Part shown: positions 1,321-32,682 of the stretch, piece after piece
Layout: every line of letters begins with the position of its first letter
Position numbering within the stretch: position 1 is the stretch's first letter
NCBI GenBank assembly: GCA_002457675.1
Contig: NTKK01000005.1
Coordinates: forward strand, 87,867 to 151,866
Length of the DNA: 64,000 bases
Direction: 5' to 3'
Source: Bacteroidetes bacterium MED-G17
GTDB taxonomy: Bacteria; Bacteroidota; Bacteroidia; NS11-12g; UBA9320
Translations under genes and position numbers: made by a program
Notes under the pieces: model-generated
What the model saw: the letters and a program-made list of their open reading frames with translations, nothing else
Database searches by the model: none
What the model was told of the DNA's origin: nothing

Positions 1321-4300
1321 ATGCGTTTTAGCCTCATGCTTTGGATATTGATGTTACTATCAAATGCCTTTGGTCAAGACGCTTTTAATTTACCACAAAA
1401 AACTGACATTAGGTTTATCCCCAACCATGGTCAATTTCATCCTAAAGTTTTGTATCGGGCAGAAATTGAAAATGGTCATCTATTTGTAGAAAAAGATCGG
1501 TTAACTTTCCACCTAAAAAATTCAAATGATTTTCACAAGATCGTTGAGTATTGGCACCACACCTCTAATTCAACGGGGAATTTACGACTTCATTCCTTTA
1601 GTTTGATTTTTTCTCAATCTCCAAAATTTGTTGAACATTTCGGACTAGGAAAAGTACAGGAATATTATAATTTTTATTTGGGAAGTAATTCAGACAAGTG
1701 GGCTTCAAAAGTGCCTGGCTTTTTGAGTGTACAATTAAATAATATATTTCCTGGAACAAATATGTTGCTTTACTCAGTTGATGGGAAATTGAAATACGAC
1801 ATACAAGCAGAAACCCCAAACTTGGCAAAGAATTTTTTTTTCGAAGTCATTGGTTTAAAACGTTTCAAGCTAGATGCTAAAGGCAATTTGGTTTTCCATA
1901 CAAATGCAGGAATTATAAAGGATTCTAAACCAATTTCCTTTCAGAACTCCAACCAATATATAAAAAATATTGAAACCAATTTTGTTGTAACTCAACGTAA
2001 AGTATCTTTTGAATTTTCAGCGGCGACTGAGCCCGATGTACCGATTATAATTGACCCAACACTTATTTTTTCAACATATTCTGGTAGCAAAGCAGATAAT
2101 TTTGGCTACACTGCCACGTACAATTCTTTAGGCCATTTGTATGCCGGAGGAATCACAGACGCCACTACAACAGGTTACCCAACCACACTAGGTGCGTATC
2201 AAAAGGATGCAGTTGGTGGATTTAGCAGAAGTCCTGCCAATCTCCCTTGCGACATTACCATAAGTAAATACCAATCCAATGGTTCTAGTTTAATTTATGC
2301 AACCTATTTGGGCGGATCTGATAGCGAATTTCCTCATAGTTTGGTTGCCAGTAAGGATGATGAACTTTATATTTTTGGAACAAGCTATAGTGTTGATTAT
2401 CCCATATCCAAAAAGGCTTTTCAAAAGTCAAAATCAATAGGTACAGATATTATTGTTAGCAAACTGAATCACGCTGGCTCTAAGTTATTGGCCTCAACTT
2501 ATGTTGGGGGCAATGATGACGATGGCCTCAATAGTACAGCAGATTTGCGCTATAATTATGCAGATGATTTTAGAGGAGAAATAACCTTAGATGTCAATGA
2601 AGAAGTTTGGGTTGCATCTTCAACAAATTCAACTAATTTTCCAACACAAAACCCAAGCCAAAAAGACCTTAAAGGGTTTTTAGACGGTTGTATTTTTCAT
2701 CTAGATACCGGACTTTCACAAATGCGCTGGGGTACTTATTTCGGAGGAAAATCAAATGATGCTTTATACTCCATTGAATTGGATAAAAAACAAAATGTTT
2801 TTGTTTCGGGTGGCACAAAGTCTGATAGTTTAGATGTCGATACAATATATCAGCAAAAAAGAGGTGGAGACGTAGACGGTATAATCGCCAAGTTTGATAA
2901 AAACAATAAATTAGTTGCAAGCACTTATTGGGGTGGCCAGAAATATGACCAAATTTATTTTCTATCAATAGACTCAAAAGATCGTGTATACTTTGCTGGC
3001 CAAACAGAAAGTGCGCACCAAACCACGTCAGGAACATATGGTTCAAAAGATAAAGGCCAAATTATAGGTAGAATTAGTAACGATTTAAAAACACAACAAT
3101 TTCTTAGCGTTTTTGGTAATAGAAATAGAAAGCCTGACATCTCACCAACGGCTTTTTTGGTAGATAGGTGTTTTAATATTTACTTATCTGGTTGGGGTTC
3201 AAATACAGATCCAAGATCAAACCCTGGAAGTACAATTGGTCTTCCAATAACACAAGATGCTTTACAAAAAACAACCGATAGCAATGATTTTTACCTCATT
3301 GCACTAGAGCCCAATGCAAGCAATATTGGCTTTGCTTCTTTTTATGGCGGCGACTCTACAGAAGACCATGTTGACGGAGGAACCTCACGGTTTGATCCTC
3401 AGGGTATAGTTTACCAAAGTGTTTGCGCCTCTTGCCCAAACCCACCCAAGAGTAGCAAAAATCAAGTTTCTGATTTTCCGACAAGCTCAAATGCTGTTTA
3501 TAAAAAAAATTCTAGCCCAAGATGTAGCAATGCATCTTTCAAAATTGACTTTAGACTGTCTAAATCTGTAATAGCTGATTTTAAGGCAAGTCCTTTAGCT
3601 GGTTGTTCACCGCTTAAAGTTGACTTTACCAATTATTCCGAAAATGCCATTTCATACAAATGGATATTCACCCCCCAAGACACCAGCAAAGCAAAAAACC
3701 CAAGTTTTACTTTCAAAACTCCAGGTAAGTACACAGTTTTATTGGTTGCACGAAATGCCCTCTCTTGCAATAAGACAGACACTTTTGAGAGAGAAATTAA
3801 ACTTTACGATCATTCCAAAGCAAAATTTGTAGCAAAACCCAAACGATGTGAATTGTTGGTAGAATTTATAGATAGCTCAGAAAATGCTGCAAGTTATTTC
3901 TGGGATTTTGGCGACGGGAAAACAAGCACCAAAAAAAACCCAAGCCATTTGTATCGATTCAGTGGCAAATATCCTGTGCAACTTATTGTAGGTAGTGAAA
4001 CGGACTGTGTTGACACCTTCGAATCGAGTATTCGGGTTTTGATTAAAGATACCCTAAAAGCAGATTTTTCTATTCAGCCACCCGTCTCTTGCTTACCAGT
4101 TCATTATACACTAATCGACCAGTCCGATGGTGGGATGACTTTCAAATGGATTATAAATAACCAGTTAATTTCTGACTCAACCAAAGCATTTTTCAGAGTT
4201 ACAGACACCATTCCAAAAAATGTATACCTCATTGTTTTAGATACAAATAGGTGTAATGAGATCGATACTGCAACAAAAGTTTTACGGGCTTTTGACGAAG

Positions 4301-5313
4301 CTGTTGCCAATTTTGATGTCTTCTCTGATCCCTGTACTAGGAAAATTCAAGTGGTTAATGGATCTAAAAATGCAGACACTTATGCCTATACCTTATCAGA
4401 TGGAAGTGAAAATGATAGGTCAGATTTTAAGTATGAATTCGATACAGATGGAACAAAATCTATTCAACTCATTATCAATAAAGGAACAACTTGTGCAGAT
4501 ACAATAACCAAAACAATTGATGTCGAATTCAAGGATAGCCTAAGTGCTTTATTTGATATAAAGCCAAAAAGAGCCTGCCAACCAGTTTCTTTTACTATTG
4601 ACAATAAATCCTATAATGCTACAAGTTATTTATGGGACGTTGATAATGGACAAACACCCACAGGTTTTGAACCGCAGATGACCCTATCACAAGCTGGTAT
4701 ATACAAGGTCAGGCTCATTGTATCTAACCGAAATGCTTGTATAACAGATGATACTTTTACCCAGACAATTGAGGTAGTTCAAAAGCCGAAAGCGGAATTT
4801 ACTTACACCGCAGAAAACTGCAAATTTGATATTGAGTTGACAAATAACTCCGAAAATGCAAACAATTACCTCTGGCTATTACCAAATGACTCAACAAGTA
4901 GAGAAAAAGAGTTTACATTTTCCTTAAATGATACGGCAAAAAAAATGATACAATTGATTGCCAATCCAGACTCACTTTGTTCAGACACCGCACAATTATT
5001 GGTTGATTTAAATCCACTTTATGACAATAAATTGGAACTTTATAATGTATTTACACCTAATAACGACGGCGATAACGACTGCTTCTCTTTAGACGGGAAA
5101 ATAGGTGGTTGTAAAAATATAGAATGGAAAATATTTAACCGTTGGGGCGAAAAAGTATTTGAGTCTAAAAGCTTAAAATCCTGCTGGAACGGATATGACA
5201 AAAAACAAAAAAAATTGTATCCAGAAGGCGTCTATTTTGGCATAGTGAAAATATTTGATGATTCCTTAAGTTTGCAACACACAATAAGCATCAGTATCAC
5301 GTTACTAAATTAG
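1321..5313 (+). CDS. Secreted SBBP beta-propeller / PKD-repeat protein with C-terminal CHU_C (T9SS type B) sorting domain, 1330 aa
   Basis: Signal peptide MRFSLMLWILMLLSNAFG|QD. SBBP-type repeats are present (YATYLGGSDSE, ASTYVGGNDDDG, WGTYFGGKSND, ASTYWGGQKYD, FASFYGGDSTED). There are about six PKD-like modules (e.g. YFWDFGDGKTSTKKNPSHLY). The C-terminus reads YNVFTPNNDGDNDCF..IFNRWGEKVFES..CWNGYDKK..YPEGVYFGIV. Confidence 0.85.
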   Translation: MRFSLMLWILMLLSNAFGQDAFNLPQKTDIRFIPNHGQFHPKVLYRAEIENGHLFVEKDRLTFHLKNSNDFHKIVEYWHHTSNSTGNLRLHSFSLIFSQSPKFVEHFGLGKVQEYYNFYLGSNSDKWASKVPGFLSVQLNNIFPGTNMLLYSVDGKLKYDIQAETPNLAKNFFFEVIGLKRFKLDAKGNLVFHTNAGIIKDSKPISFQNSNQYIKNIETNFVVTQRKVSFEFSAATEPDVPIIIDPTLIFSTYSGSKADNFGYTATYNSLGHLYAGGITDATTTGYPTTLGAYQKDAVGGFSRSPANLPCDITISKYQSNGSSLIYATYLGGSDSEFPHSLVASKDDELYIFGTSYSVDYPISKKAFQKSKSIGTDIIVSKLNHAGSKLLASTYVGGNDDDGLNSTADLRYNYADDFRGEITLDVNEEVWVASSTNSTNFPTQNPSQKDLKGFLDGCIFHLDTGLSQMRWGTYFGGKSNDALYSIELDKKQNVFVSGGTKSDSLDVDTIYQQKRGGDVDGIIAKFDKNNKLVASTYWGGQKYDQIYFLSIDSKDRVYFAGQTESAHQTTSGTYGSKDKGQIIGRISNDLKTQQFLSVFGNRNRKPDISPTAFLVDRCFNIYLSGWGSNTDPRSNPGSTIGLPITQDALQKTTDSNDFYLIALEPNASNIGFASFYGGDSTEDHVDGGTSRFDPQGIVYQSVCASCPNPPKSSKNQVSDFPTSSNAVYKKNSSPRCSNASFKIDFRLSKSVIADFKASPLAGCSPLKVDFTNYSENAISYKWIFTPQDTSKAKNPSFTFKTPGKYTVLLVARNALSCNKTDTFEREIKLYDHSKAKFVAKPKRCELLVEFIDSSENAASYFWDFGDGKTSTKKNPSHLYRFSGKYPVQLIVGSETDCVDTFESSIRVLIKDTLKADFSIQPPVSCLPVHYTLIDQSDGGMTFKWIINNQLISDSTKAFFRVTDTIPKNVYLIVLDTNRCNEIDTATKVLRAFDEAVANFDVFSDPCTRKIQVVNGSKNADTYAYTLSDGSENDRSDFKYEFDTDGTKSIQLIINKGTTCADTITKTIDVEFKDSLSALFDIKPKRACQPVSFTIDNKSYNATSYLWDVDNGQTPTGFEPQMTLSQAGIYKVRLIVSNRNACITDDTFTQTIEVVQKPKAEFTYTAENCKFDIELTNNSENANNYLWLLPNDSTSREKEFTFSLNDTAKKMIQLIANPDSLCSDTAQLLVDLNPLYDNKLELYNVFTPNNDGDNDCFSLDGKIGGCKNIEWKIFNRWGEKVFESKSLKSCWNGYDKKQKKLYPEGVYFGIVKIFDDSLSLQHTISISITLLN

Positions 5314-5315
5314 TT

Positions 5316-5456
5316 ATGAACAAAAACAAAAATTTATGGATTACATTGGCTTTGGTTGCCGCTTTCGCATTTTCTTCTTGTAAAACTTATGTAGCTCCTT
5401 ATGATGGACCTACAACATCATCTTTGGATGCCCAACCAGACAACAAAAAGTCTTAA
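5316..5456 (+). CDS. Putative 46-aa lipoprotein (small ORF below the track cut-off)
   Basis: ATG 5316 to TAA 5454..5456 encodes MNKNKNLWITLALVAAFAFSSCKTYVAPYDGPTTSSLDAQPDNKKS. It has a basic n-region, a hydrophobic core and a lipobox-like FSS|C. It starts 3 nt after the stop of the 1330-aa gene. Confidence 0.45.
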   Translation: MNKNKNLWITLALVAAFAFSSCKTYVAPYDGPTTSSLDAQPDNKKS

Positions 5457-5469
5457 TTTATACTATAGG

Positions 5470-6339
5470 TTAGGCCAATATTTCCGCAACCTTTGATCCT
5501 ATTTCTGCGGGAGAGTCTACTACGTGGATTCCACAAGAACGCATAATGGCCTTTTTCGCTTGAGCTGTATCGTCAGCGCCGCCTACGATGGCGCCTGCAT
5601 GTCCCATTCGCCTTCCTTTTGGGGCCGTTTCGCCAGCAATAAAACCTACCACAGGTTTGTTGCCATTTTCTTTTACCCATTTAGCAGCAGTAGCTTCCAT
5701 ATCTCCGCCAATTTCTCCAATCATTACTACCGCGTCCGTTTCGTCGTCCTGCATAAATAGTTTCATTGCATCTAACATGCTCGTACCGATAATTGGGTCT
5801 CCGCCAATACCTATGGCCGTAGATTGGCCCAATCCTTCTTTTGTAATTTGATCAACTGCTTCATAGGTTAAAGTTCCAGATTTTGATATTAAACCTATTC
5901 TTCCTTTTTGAAATATAAACCCTGGCATGATGCCAATTTTTGCTTCTCCTGGCGTGATTATGCCCGGACAATTGGGGCCAATCAAGATAGCATCTTTGCC
6001 ATCTGCATATTTTTTAGCATCTATCATGTCTTTTACAGGGATACCCTCCGTAATTGCAACGATTACACCAATTCCAGCATCTGCTGCTTCCATTATAGCG
6101 TCTGCTGCAAATGGAGGTGGAACAAATATGATAGAAACATTCGCTTGTGTTTCATTTACGGCTTCTTTCACGGTATTAAATACGGGCAGATCAAGATGAT
6201 ATTGGCCTCCTTTGCCTGGTGTAACACCACCAACTAATTGTGAACCATATTCAATCATTTGAGTGGCGTGAAAACTGCCCTCTTTACCTGTAAAACCTTG
6301 GACTAAAATTTTAGAATCTTTATTGACTAGAATGCTCAT
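5470..6339 (-). CDS. sucD: Succinate--CoA ligase (ADP-forming) subunit alpha
   Basis: The conserved N-terminus [24 protein letters not shown] begins at ATG 6339; the track ORF extends to 6393. Motifs seen: [17 protein letters not shown] and the phosphohistidine loop MGHAGAI. Confidence 0.93.
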
Positions 6340-6475: not shown

Positions 6476-9400
6476 CTATTTATCTCTCAATAGGGTAACC
6501 TGACCGCTGATTGGACCAAGTCCATCATTTTCAGGTTTAGCTCTTAATCTGTACTCCAGTATGTAAAAATAAACACCCTGTGGACACTCTTTTTTGCCTT
6601 TGTTCATTACCGTTCCATCCCAATCCACTTCTGAATCCTCACTCTCAAACACCAACTCACCCCAACGGTTAAAGATTTTAATGCTGTATTCCTCATGACC
6701 CTCAATACTTGGATTAAAGAAATCATTGTCTCCATCCCCATTTGGAGTAAATACGTTATAAGGTATAATTTCAGATAGGAATTCATTTTTAACCTCCAAT
6801 CGGAATGTGTCCTTACATCCAAATGCACTTACAGCGATTAACCACACATCATATTCATCGCCACCATTTCTATTGATTACTTCACCATAGTTGTGCACTG
6901 GTTCATATTCCGTACTCATTATTTGGAAAGGAGCATCATAGTCAAAATCCCACTCATAGCCTACCGCATTTGAGGATAAGTTGATGAATTTGAATTCAGG
7001 TTGTTCATAAGAACTATCTATTTCAAATTCAGCCTTTACGTAGTCCACATAGACATAGATAGTATCGTTGGAAGGACATTCCGGAGTGAAGGGATCTCCA
7101 TCGTCCCAATCTGGAATAAGTATCACCCGTTTCAAGCCACTAGATTGCCACCTATGCGTTACTTGGAAACCTGACTTTATTTCGGTTGTTGAAGAATCTT
7201 CTTCAATAAGCCATGTCCATTCTGTGTAAAGCGGTTGATTTGAACTGTCTGTGAATGTCACCAACTCTTTTACACAAACTGTATCTTTATCTGCATGTGC
7301 TTTGGTCTTTAATCTTGGGAGCACAGTTACTTTAAAATAACGCGGTTCCAAAATATCAGGGCTGGGGTCAGGGAAGATAACATCGCACCGGTCAGTAAAT
7401 CCAGTGATTTTATCAGATTGTCTTAAATAAACGTAGTATACCCCTGTGTCCTTATAAACATGAATGGCTGTATCTTGGAATTTTCTTGCATTTTCTTGGG
7501 AACTATCTCCCCAATTAAAGTACCAAATGGTACTGTCATCAATTGGGTAAGTTGGTGTTGGACTAATATTGTTAGCAAAAACACTATCTCCAAGACAAAT
7601 GGTTATGGAGTCTCCTTGTCCAAAATTGTTCAAGAATTCAAATTCTGGCTCTGGTCCAATTATGTAAACCTGCTTGATAATACTGTCTTCACAACCAAGT
7701 GCAGAACGTACTTTTAACTTCACTGAAAAATAGCCCCTAGATGTATAAACATGGGCGGGATTTCTCAATAAACTTCTTTGTGTACCATCTCCAAAATCCC
7801 ATTCCCAGTAAACCACACTGTCACAACGAAGAGAATTTGAATCTGCACAAACTTCTGACCTACAAGGGTCAAGCACATAGGAAGAGTCAAAAAAGAAGAA
7901 ATCATCATCACAGCTGTTTACTGTATCATTGAGATAGAAATTTGGAATCACGTCAGTCACATATACTTTTACTTTAGAAGTATCTCTACATCCCAAGCTG
8001 TCTTCAGTTGCGATACGAATTATTTTAGGTCCTGGTGTTGAATAGGTCCATTCTCTAAATTCTACAGATGTTCGCCAGTTTTCTGCATCGCTGGTGTCAT
8101 AGTCAATATATTTTTTCTCTTTGATGGCGAAACGAGAAGGCGCTTCCCAGAAACCTCTTGGATCAATCGGGAAGAACTGAGGGAATGCATCTCCATTATC
8201 GGCTGCATAGTATCTGATACTGTCTTCCACACGCAATGTTTGACCTTCGCACAATGACTCGACTGTTTTGAATTCCCTGAAATAACCAACATTTAGCAAT
8301 ATGTTGGCGCGGGTTTCGCAATTGTCAATGTTAAGCATTCGTACATTGGGCACCATTGGACCTTCCCAGTCTATCGTAACGGATGGAATGGTATCAAACT
8401 CTGTTGGGTTTCCTCTATTGTCAAACTTAGAAGGCACAATAAGTGTATCCACTACAGGTACATCTGGATAATAATTTTCATATAGCCTTCTATCAGCTAA
8501 ACTCGCACAAGAATCAAAGAAAGGTATGGGCATCCTATAGATTAATTTGTACACGCCTGGCACGGTATCTCCTTGCGCAAAGGTGTCAATTGGCATGTTC
8601 AAGTTTCTAGGGGTAATCATTGTGTCATATCCTTGAAGCGAGCTATCTCTAAAATGTAGTATTTGTTCTATGATTGTACTATCACTCATGCTCGAATCTG
8701 TATACTGATAAACGAACTCATCATGACGTTTTGTTAAATAAGTGATTCTTTCATTCCTAAACTCAAAGTCATCACTAAAGCCAGAAGTGTCAACGCATCC
8801 ATAAGTACCATCTCCCAAGTAATAAGCTACATCTGTTTTGGGGATTTTTCTGTAATCAAGTCCTTCGCTTTCAAATGCCTCAATAATGGCGTCAGTAGCA
8901 CCTTTATCATCTACTTTAACCACAAAATCTCTCAAGATAGCTGTCACAATGGTATCAAGGGTTTCCAAATAGAAACGTTCCTTACCATTAAGATTCAAGA
9001 AATTTCGGGCACGATAGCGGACCACGAAGTTGTAATGCCAATCTTCGCCATCATAGTTGATATTGCTATCATTTCTAGTTGGGCTTGGCCCTTTATAGGG
9101 TACGAAATATTCGAACAATTCGTAATACTGATCAAGGGGAGAATAATCCACTGTGGTATTTTCACCGGTAAATTGCTTGATGATCTGGTAACCATGATTC
9201 ACTTCAAGCTTTTGGATACCATCTTGTAATTCATAGTGTAATTTGATGTATGCAGTGTCTCCAAAACAAATGTACCTGGGTGTATTATTTGGGGAGATCA
9301 TTTCAAAATTAGCAGACAATAAGTTGATTCTAAAAATGTCACTATACCAAGCGGTATCTGTACATTCAGGCGCAATTGGTGTGGTAGTAACCGTAGTATC

Positions 9401-12400
9401 AATTCTTAAAATGCTCGGAGGATTGGTAGTATTGTCAAAAAGTGTATCATAAGTAACCAAGAAATTAGGCGGTCCGTTGCCAATGATAAGTCCCAAAGTG
9501 AAGGACCCAGTTTTTGTATTCCTACCCGCTAAATTATTGGCTGTATAACGTTGAACAAATGTGGTCCCCCATTGTAAAATCATCGGATAAGGCATAATAA
9601 AGGGAAGCGGGCTCGGATTTGTTTTTGGTGGAGCTAAGATGCCTCCGCTTTTGTAATTCACCCAATTATTTTTACCCGCAAGCGAGTCAAAATTCACCTC
9701 AAACCACTGCTGTGAACAACCTGGTTTTGTCTCCCTCAAATGAAATTGAAGCGTATAGTCTTCTGCCCTTGCAGGATCAAAAGGGCAAGGTTCACCACTT
9801 TCCCACACCAATACTTCTGCATTTGGTGGCATAAGGGCTAAACTAACATTTCCTGTTGCCTCACAAAAAGGTGGGGTAACGGTGTCTTTATGATATAAAC
9901 TTACATTAAAACACTGCACCGTATTTTGGTAAAAATCACTTCGGTGGAAAGCAGGATCTACAACAATTTGCTGGCGTACAACAAATGTATCCACAAGTTC
10001 ACCATTGATTGTCATCACTGTATCTTTAATAAATGTACTTGCCGTAGCAGTTATTAACCTTCCTGCCTCAAAATCATAGGCAGGTTCTGGAAACAATGTA
10101 TCACATACAGTTTCTAAGGTAAACTGATCATCTGACTCCAACGTGAAAGTTGTAGGACCATTATATGTTGTAATATTTTGTGGATTGGTGGCAACATTTA
10201 TGACTTCCACCACACCAGAATTGATGTATTTGTATTTTTCAATATTCCCATCAACCACTGTAGAAATAGTTGGTCCTACAACGATGGAATCACTCAAGGT
10301 ATTAACCCTTACAATTAGACCCGTTTCATCGACGGAATAATACGTGCCAGAAATCCATTTAATTACCGCATCTTTAGGCACCTTTACCAAAGCATTGAAT
10401 GTTTGTCCTGCAGTAGCAGTATCATTGATTACAAGGGTGTTGCTATCATAGTACTCCAAATTGGTATCGGCATAAATAACTGACTGCGCAGGCAGTAGGA
10501 TATAACCGTCAATAGGCATTACGAATGTGTCGAGAGCAAAAATATTTTTTTCAAAAATTTGGGCAGAATTTGCTGCAACTGCTTTGCTTAATTCTTCCTC
10601 TACATTTGAATACTTTGTTGGTACGAATACATCTAAAACATCAGGAATTCTGACAAAGCTATCCGGCCATACATTTACATCGAAACATTGTCTAGCATTT
10701 TTGCTAAGTAAAGTTCTTCTTACGGGCTGACTTATAAATTGAAAGTTGTTTCCTTCATAGTATGTCGTTTCCCAAGGCGTATACCAGTGAACAGGTAAGC
10801 TGTCTAATGAAAAATTACAATTTTTCCCTATGTTTTTGCCTGCCCTTGTGTCAGTTGTACATTGTGGAGCATATTGATCCCCAAAGGACCACAAACGATA
10901 AACATGGGTTTTGAATGGACCTGTTCCTGGAGGATCAGGATAGGGAATTGCAGTTTGATCGCCAGATCTAGTAGCAGTGTCATAATTGAACGCATACTCA
11001 AACTCATAAGTAGAATCTAAACGAACCACTATGGAGTCATAAATGATTTGCCCATTAAAATAGACACTGTCATTACCACCAAAATATCTTAAAGTAGTGT
11101 CCGATAAAAAAATAGTATCTGCTGGAACAGTGTACTTGGTAGGCACGCCTCCTATAAGCCCAAAAGTATCTTTTTGATAAATACCAAACATGGGGATATT
11201 TACACCATTTATGGTGAAACTTGTGTCTTGTCCAATGAGGATCATGGTATCTTTAGTTATTGAACTTAAATGATATCTTGTAAGCTTTCTAACCAAAAAA
11301 GTATCCAATCTATTGCAGCTCATTGAGGTATCAAATTCATGTAATTCTATGACTGGGACACCTGGTTCTCTTTTACTTACCGTTACAACTTCGTCAAAAA
11401 TATTGTCATCGTTTCCAAAGAAAGATGAAGCATTGGTGAAATGAATTGAATCACGAATAATACACTGGTATTTTTCTTCTTCTGGGATAAAAGTAACCAT
11501 GGGTATCTCTATGGTGGAGGCAGGCCCCAACCTTAGGATAGTATCATAGGCCATAACATCACAAGGCCCTTGAACAATTCTACAAGATATCATCCATGGT
11601 CCATTAGGATGCGAACGAGTTGGGTTTGCATTTTGATTGTCAAAATTTACATTAGGTGGCCAAGGTGGATTACCGAAATTCCATAAAAATTGTGAACCGG
11701 GTGGCATTCCACCTTCTATTTCAAATGTTACTTCATCACTTCCAGTACAAGAGGTATCCATACTTGCAAGAATTTTAGGTTCGAGTACAAAGTTTGTTGC
11801 TGCCGCTTTGTAAGTGAAAGAATCAATACAGCCAAATTTGGCTTCCACAGTGAGTCTCGCATCAAAAGTCCCATCGGTTTTATAAAGGTGACACACCCTT
11901 CTTTTCCATGCATTAGAATCTGCGGGCGGATAAAAGGTATCTATCGTACCATCACCGTAATCCCAAATAAATGATTTTACACTGTCGAAAGGTAGCGTTG
12001 ATAGGTTGGTGATACAAGCGGTTGTTGTGTCACAGCCTATGGGCGCATTCGAACTAATTTTTACACCAAGCTTTGGAAATACTTCTATATAATCAGACAA
12101 TTTTACGGACGATACGCAGCCATTGGCATCCACGGCTTTAATATTTAATCCATATTTCCCGCCCTGTTGATCAATAACAGAGTGACAGAATTGTAAAGGA
12201 TATGATGGATTGTCGAATACATAATTTCCACCATCATCAAAAATAAACGTTTGTTTCACTATGCTGCTTCCTGGAGCTGCTGAAGTGGTGTCTAAAAAAC
12301 AAAATTTATTGCCTTCAAAACACTGCGTAGAAGAATTGGTAAGAATGTTGAATATTTTTGGTGAGGGTTTCACAACCAGTTTGAAACTATCTTCACAGGC

Positions 12401-12670
12401 TCCTGTCGGGCCGGTAAATCTATACTTTACCATGTAAGTTCCTGCTTTTGAATAAGCATAAGCAGGGTCTTTATCGGCAGAGGTTATTCCTTCTCCAAAG
12501 TCCCAAAAAAATGTGTTCCTGCCTGACGAATTGGCTGAAAAACTTATGGTTGAGTTTACACATGGAGCAGTAGAAGTATCCGCTTGTGGACTACAACTTT
12601 GCCCTTGAACTGAAAAAGAACCGCCCAACAAGAGCAGTATAAAGAAAGCGATAATTTTAGTCGTTTTCAT
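6476..12670 (-). CDS. Giant secreted PKD-repeat protein with C-terminal CHU_C (T9SS type B) sorting domain, about 2064 aa
   Basis: Track ORF is 6476..12745. The signal peptide MKTTKIIAFFILLLLGGSFSVQG|QS starts at ATG 12670. PKD-like modules sit at the N-terminus (FFWDFGEGITSADKDPAYAY, FIWDYGDGT) and the C-terminus (YWEWDFGDGTQRSLLRNPAHVY, WYFNWGDSSQ, YEWDFDYD). The CHU_C domain reads YNVFTPNGDGDNDFF..IFNRWGELVFES..DWDGTVMNKGKKECPQGVYFYILEY..GQVTLLR. Confidence 0.85.
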   Translation of the reverse strand: MKTTKIIAFFILLLLGGSFSVQGQSCSPQADTSTAPCVNSTISFSANSSGRNTFFWDFGEGITSADKDPAYAYSKAGTYMVKYRFTGPTGACEDSFKLVVKPSPKIFNILTNSSTQCFEGNKFCFLDTTSAAPGSSIVKQTFIFDDGGNYVFDNPSYPLQFCHSVIDQQGGKYGLNIKAVDANGCVSSVKLSDYIEVFPKLGVKISSNAPIGCDTTTACITNLSTLPFDSVKSFIWDYGDGTIDTFYPPADSNAWKRRVCHLYKTDGTFDARLTVEAKFGCIDSFTYKAAATNFVLEPKILASMDTSCTGSDEVTFEIEGGMPPGSQFLWNFGNPPWPPNVNFDNQNANPTRSHPNGPWMISCRIVQGPCDVMAYDTILRLGPASTIEIPMVTFIPEEEKYQCIIRDSIHFTNASSFFGNDDNIFDEVVTVSKREPGVPVIELHEFDTSMSCNRLDTFLVRKLTRYHLSSITKDTMILIGQDTSFTINGVNIPMFGIYQKDTFGLIGGVPTKYTVPADTIFLSDTTLRYFGGNDSVYFNGQIIYDSIVVRLDSTYEFEYAFNYDTATRSGDQTAIPYPDPPGTGPFKTHVYRLWSFGDQYAPQCTTDTRAGKNIGKNCNFSLDSLPVHWYTPWETTYYEGNNFQFISQPVRRTLLSKNARQCFDVNVWPDSFVRIPDVLDVFVPTKYSNVEEELSKAVAANSAQIFEKNIFALDTFVMPIDGYILLPAQSVIYADTNLEYYDSNTLVINDTATAGQTFNALVKVPKDAVIKWISGTYYSVDETGLIVRVNTLSDSIVVGPTISTVVDGNIEKYKYINSGVVEVINVATNPQNITTYNGPTTFTLESDDQFTLETVCDTLFPEPAYDFEAGRLITATASTFIKDTVMTINGELVDTFVVRQQIVVDPAFHRSDFYQNTVQCFNVSLYHKDTVTPPFCEATGNVSLALMPPNAEVLVWESGEPCPFDPARAEDYTLQFHLRETKPGCSQQWFEVNFDSLAGKNNWVNYKSGGILAPPKTNPSPLPFIMPYPMILQWGTTFVQRYTANNLAGRNTKTGSFTLGLIIGNGPPNFLVTYDTLFDNTTNPPSILRIDTTVTTTPIAPECTDTAWYSDIFRINLLSANFEMISPNNTPRYICFGDTAYIKLHYELQDGIQKLEVNHGYQIIKQFTGENTTVDYSPLDQYYELFEYFVPYKGPSPTRNDSNINYDGEDWHYNFVVRYRARNFLNLNGKERFYLETLDTIVTAILRDFVVKVDDKGATDAIIEAFESEGLDYRKIPKTDVAYYLGDGTYGCVDTSGFSDDFEFRNERITYLTKRHDEFVYQYTDSSMSDSTIIEQILHFRDSSLQGYDTMITPRNLNMPIDTFAQGDTVPGVYKLIYRMPIPFFDSCASLADRRLYENYYPDVPVVDTLIVPSKFDNRGNPTEFDTIPSVTIDWEGPMVPNVRMLNIDNCETRANILLNVGYFREFKTVESLCEGQTLRVEDSIRYYAADNGDAFPQFFPIDPRGFWEAPSRFAIKEKKYIDYDTSDAENWRTSVEFREWTYSTPGPKIIRIATEDSLGCRDTSKVKVYVTDVIPNFYLNDTVNSCDDDFFFFDSSYVLDPCRSEVCADSNSLRCDSVVYWEWDFGDGTQRSLLRNPAHVYTSRGYFSVKLKVRSALGCEDSIIKQVYIIGPEPEFEFLNNFGQGDSITICLGDSVFANNISPTPTYPIDDSTIWYFNWGDSSQENARKFQDTAIHVYKDTGVYYVYLRQSDKITGFTDRCDVIFPDPSPDILEPRYFKVTVLPRLKTKAHADKDTVCVKELVTFTDSSNQPLYTEWTWLIEEDSSTTEIKSGFQVTHRWQSSGLKRVILIPDWDDGDPFTPECPSNDTIYVYVDYVKAEFEIDSSYEQPEFKFINLSSNAVGYEWDFDYDAPFQIMSTEYEPVHNYGEVINRNGGDEYDVWLIAVSAFGCKDTFRLEVKNEFLSEIIPYNVFTPNGDGDNDFFNPSIEGHEEYSIKIFNRWGELVFESEDSEVDWDGTVMNKGKKECPQGVYFYILEYRLRAKPENDGLGPISGQVTLLRDK

Positions 12671-12748
12671 ATTAGATGTTATTCTCAAGATGATTGATCC
12701 TTTAAAAAGGTTGGCTAAGGTAGTGGTTTTTTGTGATTTTATCATAGA

Positions 12749-13609
12749 TTACCGAACGTTTAGTTTTCCTTGTTTAATTTCCTCTGTGCTATGCCCCTCC
12801 CTTTTGAAAACGATTTGATAAATATAATTGCCCTTAGGGACGAGTTCTCCACTAGCATTTTTGCCGTCCCAGTAATTTCCGGGATTTTCTGTATCGAAGA
12901 GTATTTCTCCAGTATAATTAACTATTAACAATCTGAATTTCTCAAGCTCCATATGCCCAAAATCAACAACAAATTTGTCATTGTAACCGTCTTGTGTGTG
13001 CGGTGTGATTATATTTGGTATAGGCGCTAGCTCAGTTGGGGTATAAGTGTTGGGGACCTCAACTTTTTTATCCACCAGCGCTATTTCACTATTCTCGTCT
13101 TGTTGTTTGGATAGGTTTGACGTTTTTATGCTATCTGTTTCCTGAAGGTTTTCAAATTTTCTTTCTATAACCTGCTGGTTAGGGCCTAGGTCATGCTGCG
13201 TGTTCTTTTTTACTTCTGGGGAATTTACCAATGCTTCATGGAGCTGTTTTTTTGGTTCAATTTCTTTTGGTTTTCCATTAGTTGAAATTGGCCTTATTGT
13301 GTCTTTACTGTGTACCCCAAGCTTAGGATTTTTTGGACTAGTTTGTTCACTAGCCAAAGGTATTTCCAGGGTTTTTGGTACATTACTTTTTTGGTTTGTG
13401 AGAAACAAAAGCCCAGAAACTGCCACCGCGACAATGGGGACAAGTGGGCTTGATATCACCAAATTAGACAACCACTCAAGTGGCGTAAAACCTGAACCAC
13501 CAGCACCTATTTGGGCATTTTTAGCAATTTTTTTCCATAGATGTTTCGGCGGTTGAACGGTTGATTCTTCTAATTTATTTTGGATGATATTTTCTAATTT
13601 ATCTCTCAA
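12749..13609 (-). CDS. Putative membrane-anchored anti-sigma-like protein with C-terminal CHU_C (T9SS type B)-like domain
   Basis: Overlaps the sigma gene stop by 11 nt and starts at TTG 13609; there is no in-frame ATG for more than 200 codons. It has one TM helix (LVISSPLVPIVAVAVSGLLFL) and a K/E/P/N/Q-rich linker. The C-terminus reads IPNIITPHTQDGYNDKF..LLIVNYTGEILFDTE..YWDGKNASGELVPKGNYIYQIVF..GKLNVR. Confidence 0.6.
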   Translation of the reverse strand: MRDKLENIIQNKLEESTVQPPKHLWKKIAKNAQIGAGGSGFTPLEWLSNLVISSPLVPIVAVAVSGLLFLTNQKSNVPKTLEIPLASEQTSPKNPKLGVHSKDTIRPISTNGKPKEIEPKKQLHEALVNSPEVKKNTQHDLGPNQQVIERKFENLQETDSIKTSNLSKQQDENSEIALVDKKVEVPNTYTPTELAPIPNIITPHTQDGYNDKFVVDFGHMELEKFRLLIVNYTGEILFDTENPGNYWDGKNASGELVPKGNYIYQIVFKREGHSTEEIKQGKLNVR

Positions 13610-14147
13610 AATGCTTCAACTCTTTTTGTAGATATTGTTTGGCTTTTCGCAATTGGGTTTTTGAAGTACTTTCAGAAATGTTTAATTGTTCTGCTATTTC
13701 TCTATGCAAGAAACCATCAACAACATACATATTGAATACAGTACGATAACCAGTAGGTAATTTTTGAATGGCTTGTTGTATCTCATTTTCTGTCAGTTTT
13801 GAAAGTGCATCTTCTGGTATTGAAGCAGAATTTGAAACTTCTTGTACAAACTGCACATAGCCTTTTTGCTTTCTTCTCAGCAATTCCAAAGCATGGTAAA
13901 TACATATCTTTTTCATCCAAGCTTCGAAAGAACCTATGTCTTGGTATTGATTAATTTTTTCAAAAATTTTCACAAAAGCATCATGCAGTATGTCTTCTGC
14001 CATTTGAGAATCGCTTGCATACCGCACGCATGTAGCATACAATGATGGTGCAAATTTTTGATACAGCATTTCTTGATACTTCCTTTTTTTTTGTTTACAA
14101 CCTTGAATGATTTCTGGCAATGCCTCGTATTTTTTTTTACGACTCAT
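13599..14147 (-). CDS. ECF-type RNA polymerase sigma-70 family factor
   Basis: Region 2 is DILHDAFVKIFEKINQY..FEAWMKKICIYHALELLRRK. The region 4 HTH is LPTGYRTVFNMYVVDGFLHREIAEQLNISESTSKTQLRKAKQYL. The first ATG is at 14147; the track start at 14150 is TTG. Confidence 0.88.
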   Translation of the reverse strand: MSRKKKYEALPEIIQGCKQKKRKYQEMLYQKFAPSLYATCVRYASDSQMAEDILHDAFVKIFEKINQYQDIGSFEAWMKKICIYHALELLRRKQKGYVQFVQEVSNSASIPEDALSKLTENEIQQAIQKLPTGYRTVFNMYVVDGFLHREIAEQLNISESTSKTQLRKAKQYLQKELKHFER

Positions 14148-14176
14148 CAAGGTATTGTAAGTTAAAGATGAAATAA

Positions 14177-14647
14177 CTAAGAATTTGGTTGCTCAGTTTC
14201 GATTTTTTTTACCAAATAGCGTTCTTCGAAATAGCCAAATAGTGACTCAGCATAAAAACCACAAGAATTTATTTTTTCCGCTATTTTTTCTGTAGTTAAT
14301 TCTTTAGCTATCGTTTTGCTATGAATTGCCACGGTGTTTTGCTCTTTATTGAGCATAAATGACGCGTTGTACAAATGGAAATTTAGATACAATAATTCTT
14401 GATTAAATTGCTCTATATGCATAGTAGGTATTTGGCAAAACGGTACAATGACTTGAAAGATGGGAGACGACTTATCCCCAGCAAATGCTTGCCATTGATT
14501 TGTATTTTTAGGCATCCAAACATCAACATATATTTCGAAAAAATCTTTTTGCAGTAACCATTCACCTGGGTTGGAACATCTTGTATCTTCTGGATTAACG
14601 CCCAAAGTTTGAATGGCATCTTCCACTTGCTTATAAAAATTTTGCAT
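14177..14647 (-). CDS. YbjN-like (T3SS-chaperone-fold) domain protein, hypothetical
   Basis: About 156 aa starting MQNFYKQVEDAIQTLGVNPEDTRCSNPGEWLL..FQVIVPFCQIP, which resembles the Bacteroidetes YbjN-domain family from memory. ATG is at 14647 (track start 14659 is TTG), 14 nt after the paaD stop. Confidence 0.45.
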   Translation of the reverse strand: MQNFYKQVEDAIQTLGVNPEDTRCSNPGEWLLQKDFFEIYVDVWMPKNTNQWQAFAGDKSSPIFQVIVPFCQIPTMHIEQFNQELLYLNFHLYNASFMLNKEQNTVAIHSKTIAKELTTEKIAEKINSCGFYAESLFGYFEERYLVKKIETEQPNS

Positions 14648-14661
14648 ATAAGCTGACAAAT

Positions 14662-24703: not shown

Positions 24704-25276
24704 ATGTGCTTAGGAAGCAGCAAAAATAATCTTCTGCTTTTTGCTGTTATTCCGCTATTTATTATTGGGAGTTGTAAAAAGTCAAATGTTCAAGAATTCA
24801 TTGAAAAATTTGAAATTCCTGACTCCTTCCAAGTAGAAATCGCTCAAAACGTGGAACTACAGTACGCTGATTCGGGGGTTTTAAACGCAAAAATCTTTGC
24901 AGATACAATGAAAAGGTATCCTTTAGTAGATAGCCCTTACTTAGAACTAATTGGGGGCGTAAAGGCAAATTTTTATGATAAAAAAGGTAAATCAGTTATT
25001 AGTTCTCTTCATTCAGAATACGGAAAAAGTCAAGAAGAAAGTCAAATAATTACCGTCCAAGATCAAGTAGTTCTTAACAATATCAAGGATGAAACACTAC
25101 TCACTTCTGAGCTGCATTGGAATCAAAAATCCAAAAAAATTTATACCGATAAATTTGTAACAATAATTCGCAATCAAGATACTATAAATGGCATCGGTCT
25201 TGAAAGCAATGAGACATTTTCTAAGTACAGCATTAAACGTATCAAGGGACAAATTAATCAACGAAATACAAAATGA
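24704..25276 (+). CDS. lptC: LPS export system protein LptC-like lipoprotein
   Basis: Lipobox IIGS|C. The OstA/LptC-like beta-jellyroll pattern is ELQYADSGVLNAKIFADTMKRY..GGVKANFYDKKGK..LTSELHWNQKSKKIYTDKFV. Confidence 0.65.
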   Translation: MCLGSSKNNLLLFAVIPLFIIGSCKKSNVQEFIEKFEIPDSFQVEIAQNVELQYADSGVLNAKIFADTMKRYPLVDSPYLELIGGVKANFYDKKGKSVISSLHSEYGKSQEESQIITVQDQVVLNNIKDETLLTSELHWNQKSKKIYTDKFVTIIRNQDTINGIGLESNETFSKYSIKRIKGQINQRNTK

Positions 25277-30373: not shown

Positions 30374-31186
30374 ATGCAATTATCGGCATTTATAGACTTT
30401 GTAAAAAATAAGAAATCCTGTTTGTGCGTTGGCTTAGACAATGATTACAATAAGTTGCCCCCTCATCTTTTGCCTCACGCAAGGCCAATGCTTGCATTTA
30501 ACAAACATATTATTCAAGCTACGTTAGATCATTGCGTAGCTTATAAAATAAATACTGCATTCTACGAAGTACTTGGATCGCGTGGTATGGAAATGATGGA
30601 GGAAACATTAGAACTTATTCCAAAAAGTCATTTGGTAATTGCTGATGCCAAAAGAGGTGATATTGGGAATACAGCAGAAAAATATGCACAAACCTTTCTA
30701 GATTTTTACCCATTTGACGCGGTAACCATAAATCCCTACATGGGTTTTGAAACAGTAGACCCATTTTTAAACTACCACAATAAATATGCAATTATTTTAG
30801 GTTTAACTTCAAATGAAGGAAGCAAACATATTGAAGAGCTGGCCCTTAAAGATGGTCAAAAGATTTACCAAAAAGTAATTAGCCATTTCGCTAAGCATAG
30901 AGAAACAAAGAAAATAATGTTTGTAGTTGGAGCTACCAAAGCGGAAAAAATAAGTGAAATAAGAAAGATTGCACCCGAAAATTTCTTTTTGGTTCCTGGA
31001 ATTGGTGCACAAGGTGGAAAACTAGAAGATGTTTTACACGCTGGTATGACAAAAGATGTAGGTCTATTGATCAACAGCTCTAGGGGTATTTTGTATCAAT
31101 CTGCTGGAACAGACTTTGCAGAAAAAGCGAGAAATGCAGCCAAAGAAATTCATGAGAAAATGAAACCGTTCATAGAATCAGTTTGA
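30374..31186 (+). CDS. pyrF: Orotidine-5'-phosphate decarboxylase (long, type 2 form)
   Basis: 270 aa with LCVGLDND, IADAKRGDIGNT and VPGIGAQGG. Confidence 0.88.
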   Translation: MQLSAFIDFVKNKKSCLCVGLDNDYNKLPPHLLPHARPMLAFNKHIIQATLDHCVAYKINTAFYEVLGSRGMEMMEETLELIPKSHLVIADAKRGDIGNTAEKYAQTFLDFYPFDAVTINPYMGFETVDPFLNYHNKYAIILGLTSNEGSKHIEELALKDGQKIYQKVISHFAKHRETKKIMFVVGATKAEKISEIRKIAPENFFLVPGIGAQGGKLEDVLHAGMTKDVGLLINSSRGILYQSAGTDFAEKARNAAKEIHEKMKPFIESV

Positions 31187-32682
31187 TGGATAACAAAAAA
31201 TTCCTTAGTATTTTCTGTTTTCTGATTCACTTCACTTTTGTTTTAGGTCAGAAAAAAATAGAACTTCTAAATGCAGATTCTCTACTTTTCGATCAACAAT
31301 TTGGTGAAATGCAGAGACTTAAAGGGCATGTCTTTTTTCAACAAAAAGATGTATTCATGAAAAGTGACAGTGCTTGGTTTTACGAAAAAGAAAATAGACT
31401 AAAAGCTTTTGGAAGAGTTCATATTTATCAAAAAGACTCTTTCGATCTTTTCGGCAATTATCTAGAGTATGACGGAAATGATGAAAATGCAATTGTAAAA
31501 GGTAATGTAGAATTGAGCGATGAAGATATGACACTGCGAACAGAGTCTATCATTTATGATATCCCGAATAAAACTGCTTTTTATCTTCAAGATGGCCATA
31601 TAAATGACAACGAAAATGACCTAATTAGTAAAACAGGAAAGTATTTCTCAAGAACAAAGCGTTTTAGTTTTAAAAATAACGTAGTACTTACCAATCCCAA
31701 GTACAAAATGACTTCAGATACATTAGATTATTTCACATCAAATAAAACTGCATATTTCTATGGGCCGACCTATATAAAGAGCAAGGAAAACACAATTTAT
31801 TGCAATGCTGGTTGGTACAATACAAAAACTGAAGAATCTCAATTTAGTAAAGGCGCATGGATACAAGGAAAAGAGAACAAGTTGGTAGCAGATAGCCTAG
31901 TTTATAATAGACAAACTGGCATTGGAAAAGCTTTTAGAGATATCATTCTATCGGATTCTCAAAATAATGTAAAAATTTTTGGAGCCTACGCTGTATACAA
32001 CCAATTGCAAAAAAAAACCACCATAACAATAAATCCCTTAGCCATTAAAATTCAAAAGTCAGACACACTATTTTTGATTGCAGATACGCTCATTGACCAA
32101 ACAGACACCTCAGCCAAACGGGCAGTAAGAGCATTCTCAAATGCTAGGTTTATGAATCTAGACATTCAGGGAAAAGCTGACTCAATAATTTATCAAGTGG
32201 ATGATTCCACAATGACCTTATATAAAAAGCCCATTTTGTGGACTGACTCCAACCAACTTTCAGCAGATACCATTTTTATTTTCCAAAATTCTCAGGGTAT
32301 TGATTATATGATCTTAAATGCTAACAGTTTTATCACCTCTAAGGAAAATGACCTAGTTTTTAATCAGATAAAGGGAGAAAAAATCAAGGCACTATTTATT
32401 AAAAGTGAATTAGCAAAAGTATTTGTAATCAACAAAGGAGAAAGCTTATACTACGTTAAAGAAGAAGATAGTACCTACTCAGGAGTGAATAAAATTAATT
32501 GTGAAAAAATGACAATCAGTATTGACAGCTCAAAAGTGAAAAACATATTATTTCTATCAAAGCCTAAAGGAACCTTCTACCCTATAGAAGAATTAAGCCT
32601 TGAGAAAAGTCGTCTACAAGGTTTTTCGTGGCTGTACATGTTGAAACCTAAAAGAAAAGCATTTATCTTACCCAATAATTAG
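31186..32682 (+). CDS. OstA-like (LptA/LptD N-terminal fold) repeat protein
   Basis: Signal peptide ..FLIHFTFVLG|QK. OstA-like strand patterns are repeated (LKGHVFFQQKDVFMKSDSAWFYEKENRLKAFGRVHI; VKGNVELSDEDMTLRTESIIYD). ATG 31186 overlaps the pyrF TGA by 1 nt. Confidence 0.6.
   Translation: MDNKKFLSIFCFLIHFTFVLGQKKIELLNADSLLFDQQFGEMQRLKGHVFFQQKDVFMKSDSAWFYEKENRLKAFGRVHIYQKDSFDLFGNYLEYDGNDENAIVKGNVELSDEDMTLRTESIIYDIPNKTAFYLQDGHINDNENDLISKTGKYFSRTKRFSFKNNVVLTNPKYKMTSDTLDYFTSNKTAYFYGPTYIKSKENTIYCNAGWYNTKTEESQFSKGAWIQGKENKLVADSLVYNRQTGIGKAFRDIILSDSQNNVKIFGAYAVYNQLQKKTTITINPLAIKIQKSDTLFLIADTLIDQTDTSAKRAVRAFSNARFMNLDIQGKADSIIYQVDDSTMTLYKKPILWTDSNQLSADTIFIFQNSQGIDYMILNANSFITSKENDLVFNQIKGEKIKALFIKSELAKVFVINKGESLYYVKEEDSTYSGVNKINCEKMTISIDSSKVKNILFLSKPKGTFYPIEELSLEKSRLQGFSWLYMLKPKRKAFILPNN

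Follow-up and report, generated by a model that had tools for sequence, protein, structure and literature searches.

Why should a protein encoded directly behind an extracytoplasmic function (ECF) sigma factor, in the place where an anti-sigma factor would be looked for, end in a type IX secretion system (T9SS) sorting domain? This question is raised by a locus in a stretch of 64,000 nucleotides from Bacteroidetes bacterium MED-G17 (contig NTKK01000005.1; the whole stretch is called the window hereafter), in which a sigma gene is followed by the gene of a single-pass membrane protein, which we call the partner, and then by a gene for a giant T9SS cargo protein. We propose, at a probability of about 0.55, that the sigma and partner genes form a sigma/anti-sigma operon of the kind known from the Das sigma factors and the Dma ("dual membrane-spanning anti-sigma") proteins, in which a T9SS type B sorting domain (CHU_C) has taken the place of the anti-sigma factor's outer membrane barrel, and in which the sigma factor regulates its own operon and, in this lineage, also drives the cargo gene. 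In our reading, the partner would be a Dma-like anti-sigma factor whose C-terminus was swapped, because its N-terminal module appears homologous to that of barrel-ended partners of related sigma factors.

The two genes lie on the minus strand and are tightly joined, since the sigma open reading frame (ORF), taken from its ATG, and the partner ORF (12749..13609) share 11 nt (13599-13609); in its longest form the sigma ORF starts at TTG 14150. The partner ORF encodes 286 aa, and because its earliest in-frame methionine is residue 219, an ATG start is excluded and the TTG at 13609 is the sole option. The overlap, the missing ATG and the TTG start had all been noticed in an earlier note made from this DNA alone. 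The partner of a syntenic relative, L001 (the comparison loci are cited as L001-L038), has the identical TTG start and 11-nt overlap, and the overlap of sigma and partner genes likewise amounts to 11 nt in L035 and L038. The sigma protein, about 180 aa long and made of regions 2 and 4 only, matches Sigma70_r2 (46 bits) and Sigma70_r4_2 (60 bits) in Pfam and reaches 88 bits with the sigma70-ECF model TIGR02937 (cutoff, 42.9), which places it among the ECF (group 4) sigma factors. Its best NCBIfam subfamily match, TIGR02985, stays at 96.9, under the cutoff of 126.4. Together with the hydropathy profile of the partner described below, the Pfam and TIGR02937 matches confirm that an ECF sigma factor is translationally coupled to a single-pass partner, as the earlier note had described it.

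The C-terminal part of the partner is a CHU_C domain. Indeed, residues 197-275 match PF13585 with an E value of 2.5e-13 and 50.4 bits, against a Pfam gathering score of 27, and the hallmark residues of the domain (P198, P203, D207, N210, D211, W247, G249, G260, and Y262) are invariant or nearly invariant in the family alignment. The motif-for-motif alignment that had been pointed out between this C-terminal domain (CTD) and those of the two giant CHU_C proteins of the window is real, yet the resemblance is modest, with 37% and 32% identity over 63-67 aa; the CTDs of the two giants are 56% identical to each other. In an AlphaFold2 (AF2) model based on 95 homologs, the C-terminal domain shows four main strands with a predicted local distance difference test (pLDDT) score of >90, in agreement with the small beta-sheet domain predicted for type B CTDs in the literature (PMC12618676). 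Searched against the PDB with Foldseek, the model matched generic Ig/Fn3/FlgD-like folds and, besides these, PorZ and PorU only. Pfam detected no classical anti-sigma domain in the partner (zf-HC2, RskA, or FecR, even at E <= 1) and no match to OMP_b-brl, the C-terminus being CHU_C.

At the other end of the protein, the N-terminal module (residues 1-35) carries the pattern ENI..KL...PPK.W.KIAKN, which is conserved in the alignment of homologs, whereas the transmembrane (TM) helix and the linker are variable, and the AF2 model places helices at residues 2-15 and 22-31. The first 30 residues are hydrophilic, with a maximum 9-residue Kyte-Doolittle hydropathy of -0.14, and the sole strongly hydrophobic stretch of the protein spans residues 50-68 (mean of 2.25 over 19 residues). 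A hydrophobic segment that begins only at residue 50, behind a helical module that is conserved, is not what a cleavable Sec signal peptide looks like, so that the topology check suggested in the earlier note came out, by hydropathy and AF2, in favor of a membrane anchor. The linker rich in K, E, P, and N that the note had placed after one hydrophobic helix is also found: residues 72-195 (about 124 aa) contain 13% K, 10% E, 9% N, and 9% P. The middle of the AF2 model is of low confidence and without predicted structure, the mean pLDDT per 10-residue block being about 43-61 across roughly residues 31-180.

The linker has a property that bears on its possible role. Among 180 CHU_C-type proteins, at least 122 aa separate the TM helix from the CHU_C motif, with a median of 137 aa and a second mode near 260-280 aa, and the sequence of this tether is not conserved among homologs. 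With its minimum length fixed and its sequence free, the tether would fit a link that spans the periplasm and not a membrane-proximal sensor. In the CHU_C-type and barrel-type families alike, the median start of the TM helix is residue 51, the minimum in the CHU_C family being 38. Of note, a group of longer proteins (P0007, P0008, P0010, P0013, P0014, and others, of about 425-445 aa) has the N-terminal motif, the TM helix, and the CHU_C end in common with the rest and carries a tether of about 260-280 aa, roughly double the usual length.

The architecture is widespread. A profile search with the partner against 1.84 billion representatives gave 213 matches at E <= 1e-10, and the family figures reported here refer to the best 150 of these 213 matches (152 proteins with those already in the set). 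Of these proteins, 140 of 152 are small and partner-like (<= 460 aa), and roughly 95 of the 140 (265-325 aa) match the profile from end to end in one stretch. The members have an N-terminal motif like I-[DE]-E-L-F-x-E-K-L-x-N-x-E-x-x-V-x-P-x-x-W-x-x-I, followed by a G/A/S/T-rich stretch, a TM helix, and a final CHU_C domain; some come from Bacteroidales and from metagenome-assembled genomes (MAGs) of unclassified Bacteroidota, and the only name that the databases give them is [quoted passage not shown] Judged by these profile matches, the CHU_C-ended partner design is that of a large family, with at least 140 protein clusters, which is common in sequence databases and not a one-off. The possibility that the design is unique to this genome was rejected on the grounds of the family retrieved and of the pairing with sigma factors in other lineages.

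This pairing is strict. An ECF sigma gene lies directly upstream of the partner gene in 10 of 10 further members examined, either abutting it or overlapping it by 11-17 nt, which makes 11 of 11 contexts when the window lineage is counted; the survey of other genomes that the earlier note had called for thus found the sigma-partner pair conserved. The pairs are located in at least five different genomic contexts, including one with purH-mreB and a divergent redoxin gene, a second with rpiB and a divergent redoxin gene, another with two TonB_C genes downstream, and a further one with truB upstream. A giant cargo gene adjoins the pair in the window lineage only, and the neighbors in other lineages are housekeeping genes. 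In 9 of the 10 other contexts (L027-L036), a Redoxin/AhpC-TSA gene of about 405 codons is divergent from the sigma-partner pair (3151-4383 in L027 and 4144-5346 in L033, for example) and may belong to the sigma regulon; its presence recalls the oxidative stress role reported in Bacteroides fragilis for Reo/EcfO, the Dma1 orthologous system.

The sigma-partner plan has a known counterpart. The Dma family includes Dma1/Das1 (BT_4721/BT_4720) and Dma2/Das2 in Bacteroides thetaiotaomicron, as well as the orthologous Reo/EcfO of B. fragilis (PMC10927553; bioRxiv 10.1101/2025.09.27.678952). In Dma1, the sigma-binding N-terminus is followed by a TM helix, then by a long disordered tether and finally by an eight-stranded outer membrane barrel, and residues 1-40 pull down Das1, an ECF21 sigma factor (PMC10927553). 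C-terminal fragments of Dma1 have been seen in outer membrane or vesicle fractions. A genome scan with the window sigma factor gave 22 loci from Dysgonomonadaceae, other Bacteroidales, Emticicia, Adhaeribacter, Saprospiraceae, and Lentimicrobiaceae, with sigma factors that are 36-43% identical to that of the window, except in the syntenic relative L005 (67%). In the 21 of the 22 scan loci for which downstream DNA was available, the protein encoded behind the sigma gene has a TM helix and an N-terminal pattern similar to that of the window partner, but its C-terminus is of another kind, and at least three of these related partners (L006, L008, and L026) carry an OMP_b-brl or OMP_b-brl_2 domain at the C-terminus. 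By hidden Markov model (HMM), the N-terminal motif was detected in the partners of L006-L010, was marginal in L023 and L024, and was not detected in the Emticicia partners.

The relation between the N-modules of the two partner types was examined in both directions. An HMM of 38 positions, derived from the CHU_C-type proteins and run on 941 ORFs of the loci, matched only sigma-downstream ORFs, including the non-CHU_C partners of L006-L010 (E = 1e-7 to 2e-4), and it also matched most of the barrel-type proteins retrieved, including BACCOPRO_03315 of Phocaeicola coprophilus. Conversely, an HMM built from barrel-type N-termini only matched 104 of the 140 small CHU_C-type proteins and 0 large cargo proteins, and among the 941 ORFs its matches were confined to sigma-downstream partners, that of L001 being recovered at E = 5e-5. 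These reciprocal tests indicate that the N-modules of CHU_C-type and barrel-type partners are homologous. The window sigma factor is 36-43% identical to the sigma factors of Dma-architecture partners as well as to those of other CHU_C-type partners, and sigma factors of the two partner types are at a roughly equal mutual distance (36-47% identity).

The window operon and the Dma operons therefore have several traits in common: the partner gene follows directly on its sigma gene; the protein begins with a short module that is homologous by HMM between the two types and, for the window partner, putatively sigma-associated; one TM helix starting near residue 51 is followed by a long disordered tether; the C-terminal module goes to the outer membrane, which in our case is a prediction; and the family is restricted to Bacteroidota. 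The sigma factors are related to the extent given above and have a promoter motif in common. In contrast, the eight-stranded barrel (OMP_b-brl_2) is replaced in the window partner by the CHU_C/type B T9SS domain, the tether is somewhat shorter, and in this lineage a giant T9SS cargo gene is linked to the operon, in place of the NigD or vesiculation genes. Since the C-terminal barrel is missing, the window partner is not a strict Dma member. The earlier note knew of no described module of this design, but there is a precedent: save for its C-terminal module, it matches the Dma family (PMC10927553). Another variant is seen in the Emticicia loci L011-L022 (in L011, 4527-5330 and 5416-6501), where the sigma gene is followed by a K-rich single-pass partner of 251-267 aa with neither a barrel nor a CHU_C domain. 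Nearly all of these loci have, as the gene after it, one for a secreted protein (about 350-390 aa) that is conserved, ends in ...NLTTFG[IL]R[IF]GR, and has no Pfam match, and the two proteins could be a Dma protein split over two genes.

Putative promoters would connect the sigma factor with its own operon and, in the window, with the cargo gene. An ECF-like motif, [T/G/A][G/A]CAAC-N17-[C/G/T][G/A]TC[T/A], is common to loci of both partner types and is located 9-18 nt before the sigma ATG; it was found upstream of the sigma gene in L006-L009, L011, L027-L035, L037, and L038. In the window, GCAAC-N17-CATCT stands 18 nt ahead of the sigma ATG. The exact pattern has 3 matches in the window, versus 0.28 expected, and the pattern with one mismatch has 8, versus 3.4 expected. 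Among these 8, only the sigma site and a site at 12688-12714 stand just before a start codon on the correct strand. The latter, CCAAC-N17-CATCT, is 17 nt ahead of the start of the cargo gene, within the gap behind the partner. The distance and size that the earlier note had given for the cargo gene (78 nt downstream, 2064 aa) fit the ATG at 12670, where a signal-peptide-like start (MKTTKIIAFF...) is encoded after a 78-nt gap; in its longest form, the cargo ORF starts at 12745, 4 nt past the partner stop. The same two places are occupied in L001, with GCAAC-N17-CATTC at the sigma position and CCAAC-N17-CATTT at the cargo position, the latter in a block of near-identical DNA.

No terminator-like site was found between the partner stop and the start of the cargo gene, which is probably a target of the sigma factor, by cotranscription and/or from its own promoter. 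The link to the adjacent cargo gene that had been suggested earlier is thus made plausible by the near-copy of the sigma promoter in the 78-nt gap and by its equal placement in L001, whereas the adjacency itself is specific to the window lineage. In L010, from a Bacteroidales MAG (2553-6307), the genes for a related sigma factor and for a 457-aa Dma-like partner with the N-terminal motif are followed after 4 nt by that of a 607-aa CHU_C protein; here too, and independently of the window, a sigma factor of this group has a type B T9SS cargo gene in its operon. Of note, the stretch from the ATG of the longest cargo ORF to the MKTTK ATG measures 75 nt both in the window (12671-12745, minus strand) and in L001 (10853-10927); its 5' half is nearly identical in the two genomes (AAAAAACCACTACCTTAGCCAACCTTTT.AAAGG), and its 3' half has diverged. 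We read this stretch as a promoter, the alternative being a conserved N-terminal extension (QKTTTLANL[FL]KG) before the signal peptide.

How might such a system work? We infer the topology of the partner, the engagement of its CHU_C domain by the T9SS, the release of the sigma factor, and the regulon, and our working model is as follows. The N-terminal two-helix module, of about 35 aa, would keep the sigma factor on the cytoplasmic side of the inner membrane, sigma binding by such a module being documented in the literature for Dma1 and Reo only and extended here to the window partner by analogy. The single TM helix would anchor the partner with its N-terminus inside, the disordered tether of at least 122 aa would span the periplasm, and the T9SS translocon or a PorP/SprF-type shuttle would recognize the CHU_C domain once it has reached the outer membrane. 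Through this recognition, we propose, the partner would report the state of the outer membrane or of the secretion machinery. A change in the engagement of CHU_C, or a cut in the tether, would free the sigma factor, which would then transcribe its own operon from GCAAC-N17-CATCT and, in this lineage, also the adjacent 2064-aa type B cargo gene from the near-identical promoter.

Parts of this model resemble other known systems. Type B CTD substrates with PorP/SprF shuttles, such as SprB/SprF and Fjoh_3952/Fjoh_3951 (PMC12618676, PMC9143113), share with the window partner the C-terminal CHU_C domain with its conserved motifs and predicted small beta-sheet fold. Unlike these substrates, the partner has a predicted cytoplasmic module and a membrane anchor in place of a cleavable signal peptide, and it consists of about 290 aa without a passenger domain, whereas typical cargo proteins have hundreds to thousands of residues. 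An adjacent PorP/SprF gene is common but not universal in type B substrates, and the partner would be an "orphan" because it lacks one. In Porphyromonas gingivalis, the CTD of PorA serves as a secretion signal and also, in the periplasm, as a ligand for PorY, upstream of the ECF sigma factor SigP (PMC12152298), and there too a T9SS sorting domain doubles as a signaling element that feeds an ECF sigma factor over T9SS-related genes (PMC7712824, PMC12152298). PorA, however, is a separate cargo with a type A CTD that acts via the PorY/PorX two-component system on an orphan sigma factor, whereas the window partner has its type B CTD in covalent fusion with the proposed anti-sigma factor itself.

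In the FlgM/sigma-28 checkpoint, the anti-sigma factor is a substrate of the very secretion machine whose late cargo genes the sigma factor controls. The likeness to the window pair is conceptual and belongs to hypothesis only; FlgM is soluble, has no sequence relation to the partner, and is fully exported by the flagellar type III system. The partner might be a true T9SS substrate that is held back by its inner membrane anchor, its type B domain being captured, and perhaps pulled, by the translocon or shuttle, so that the protein spans both membranes and that capture, tension, or cleavage frees the sigma factor. We consider this anchored-substrate scheme rather unlikely. If it were true, giant type B adhesins would be expressed only when the T9SS is assembled and working, and the pair would represent a FlgM-like secretion checkpoint for type IX secretion, and the partner would be the first client of the T9SS to lack a cleavable signal peptide.

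Several observations weigh against the reading of the locus as a Das/Dma-kind operon with a T9SS-directed partner. The binding and inhibition of the sigma factor by the partner are deduced. The barrel-derived HMM matched the window partner weakly (residues 2-31, E = 0.0019, 13.7 bits), as its sole match in the window, and because of this weak match the case made from the N-module rests partly on the relatives. The barrel-type relatives were not tied to BT_4721/WP_008766767.1 by name or accession, the look-up reaching only P. coprophilus BACCOPRO_03315 and proteins of Proteiniphilum and Bacteroidales. On the T9SS side, the HMM check of the C-terminus that the earlier note had suggested gave a divided result, the PF13585 score being clear and the score with the stricter NCBIfam model TIGR04131 being 27.6 bits, under the cutoff of 35. 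A PorP/SprF-like gene was found neither beside the pair in the window or in the flanks of L001-L038 nor among the window ORFs scanned, over 20 to 46 kb. T9SS substrates are described with cleavable Sec signal peptides (PMC12618676), and for a chain anchored in the inner membrane, passage through the translocon or exit from it would pose a topological problem. Finally, the promoter motif is short, and a weight matrix of 32 positions derived from 10 sigma-upstream promoters gave scores of 5.4 and 6.6 for the window sites, not above the maxima of shuffled sequences (median of 12.2); since the matrix does not discriminate, the promoter assignment is based on position, geometry, and conservation.

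The main rival explanation, which goes back to the earlier note, accepts the sigma/anti-sigma pair, on evidence identical to ours, and holds that the CHU_C domain is never exported and acts as a periplasmic sensor that binds PorP/SprF-type shuttles, the translocon, or the CTDs of unsecreted cargo, thereby coupling the sigma factor to T9SS occupancy. It has the advantage that no anchored chain needs to be threaded through the outer membrane, and it finds a parallel in the PorA CTD, which binds the inner membrane sensor PorY in the periplasm; PorA tethered to the inner membrane still signals (PMC12152298). A tether of no fewer than 122 aa throughout the family, conserved in length and not in sequence, would, however, be superfluous for a periplasmic sensor, and the homologous partners have their C-terminus in the outer membrane. 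Furthermore, there is no sign that the partner CTD mimics a particular cargo, given that its identity to the neighboring cargo CTDs is only 32-37%. We regard this periplasmic role as doubtful, albeit a serious competitor.

The C-terminal domain of the pair might also be a reused Ig-like beta-sandwich with a generic extracytoplasmic function in ligand binding or stabilization and without any link to the T9SS. The generic Ig/Fn3/FlgD-like folds returned by Foldseek, the TIGR04131 score under cutoff, and the housekeeping neighbors in most lineages would suit such a domain, and the divergent Redoxin/AhpC-TSA gene hints at a redox or envelope stress regulon, as for Reo/EcfO. Against this stand a CHU_C score well over the gathering score, hallmark positions that are kept throughout the family, and the location of the domain at the extreme C-terminus, as for sorting signals; moreover, a type B cargo gene is immediately downstream in two independent sigma operons (window and L010), and we find a generic domain improbable. 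Very little credence can be given to the idea that we are dealing with an ordinary small type B cargo of the T9SS, with the hydrophobic segment as its signal peptide and the sigma gene next to it by coincidence. The database name of the family is all that speaks for such a cargo, whereas the hydrophobic segment starts at residue 50 behind a conserved helical module (family median of 51, minimum of 38), the sigma gene is directly upstream and translationally coupled in 11 of 11 contexts, and the N-module is homologous to a sigma-binding module. On the strength of the TM position, the sigma pairing, and the N-module homology, this candidate was rejected.

The features of the locus on which the proposed Das/Dma-kind operon is based are collected in Table 1.

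Table 1. Positions of the sigma factor, partner, promoter, and cargo features in the window, with the evidence for each
Feature	Position	Strand	Evidence
Sigma promoter, putative ECF-type autoregulatory, GCAAC-N17-CATCT	14166..14192	-	Motif and geometry common to other loci
ECF sigma factor, 182 aa	13599..14147	-	Pfam r2 and r4_2; TIGR02937 above cutoff
Partner residues 1-35, N-terminal module, putative cytoplasmic sigma-binding domain	13505..13609	-	Conservation, AF2, HMM, Dma1 literature
Partner residues 50-68, single TM helix (signal anchor)	13406..13462	-	Hydropathy
Partner residues 72-195, K/E/N/P-rich disordered tether	13025..13396	-	pLDDT, composition, constrained length
Partner residues 197-286, CHU_C/T9SS type B sorting domain at extreme C-terminus	12752..13021	-	PF13585, AF2, hallmark residues
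Second putative ECF-type promoter, CCAAC-N17-CATCT	12688..12714	-	One-mismatch pattern search; L001 counterpart
2064-aa type B (CHU_C) T9SS cargo gene with PKD domains	6476..12670	-	ORF and translation; L001 syntenic gene has PKD and CHU_C

In the syntenic relatives, the order is paaABCD, a 156-aa ORF, sigma, partner, a 2089-aa CHU_C gene, sucD, and a 1330-aa CHU_C gene. A word-indexed search found four close homologs of the partner only, all located in the syntenic locus, and a blastn search of a plasmid collection with the locus gave no match. Between paaD and the sigma gene, the window contains a 160-aa ORF (14177-14659, minus strand) that begins 2 nt past paaD and has no Pfam or NCBIfam match; the sigma promoter overlaps its 3' end. 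The 156-aa ORF occupies the same slot in L001, L002, and L004, and the other sigma-partner lineages lack it. Elsewhere in the window, a 969-aa ORF (34744-37653, plus strand) encodes both the N-terminal domain of glycoside hydrolase family 3 and a beta-lactamase-family domain, in a neighborhood of housekeeping genes and of envelope genes that are LptC-like (24704-25276) and OstA-like (31183-32682).

The Dma papers considered here mention neither the T9SS nor a CTD, and among the listed papers that use the term "dual membrane-spanning anti-sigma," no title or abstract points to a T9SS or CTD variant. Likewise, we found no description of this architecture in the anti-sigma and ECF21 literature concerned with the T9SS or type B CTDs, within a searchable literature that is incomplete. 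This suggests that the Dma sigma-partner plan is the known part of the design and that the type B sorting domain in the place of the barrel is the new one. On our reading, a sigma-binding module with its tether could be plugged into the outer membrane either via a barrel of the type inserted by the beta-barrel assembly machinery (BAM) or via a T9SS sorting signal. The working rule that every T9SS CTD protein starts with a cleavable signal peptide would be challenged, and protein clusters numbering well over a hundred, now labeled only as "gliding motility-associated C-terminal domain" proteins, would gain a regulatory role.

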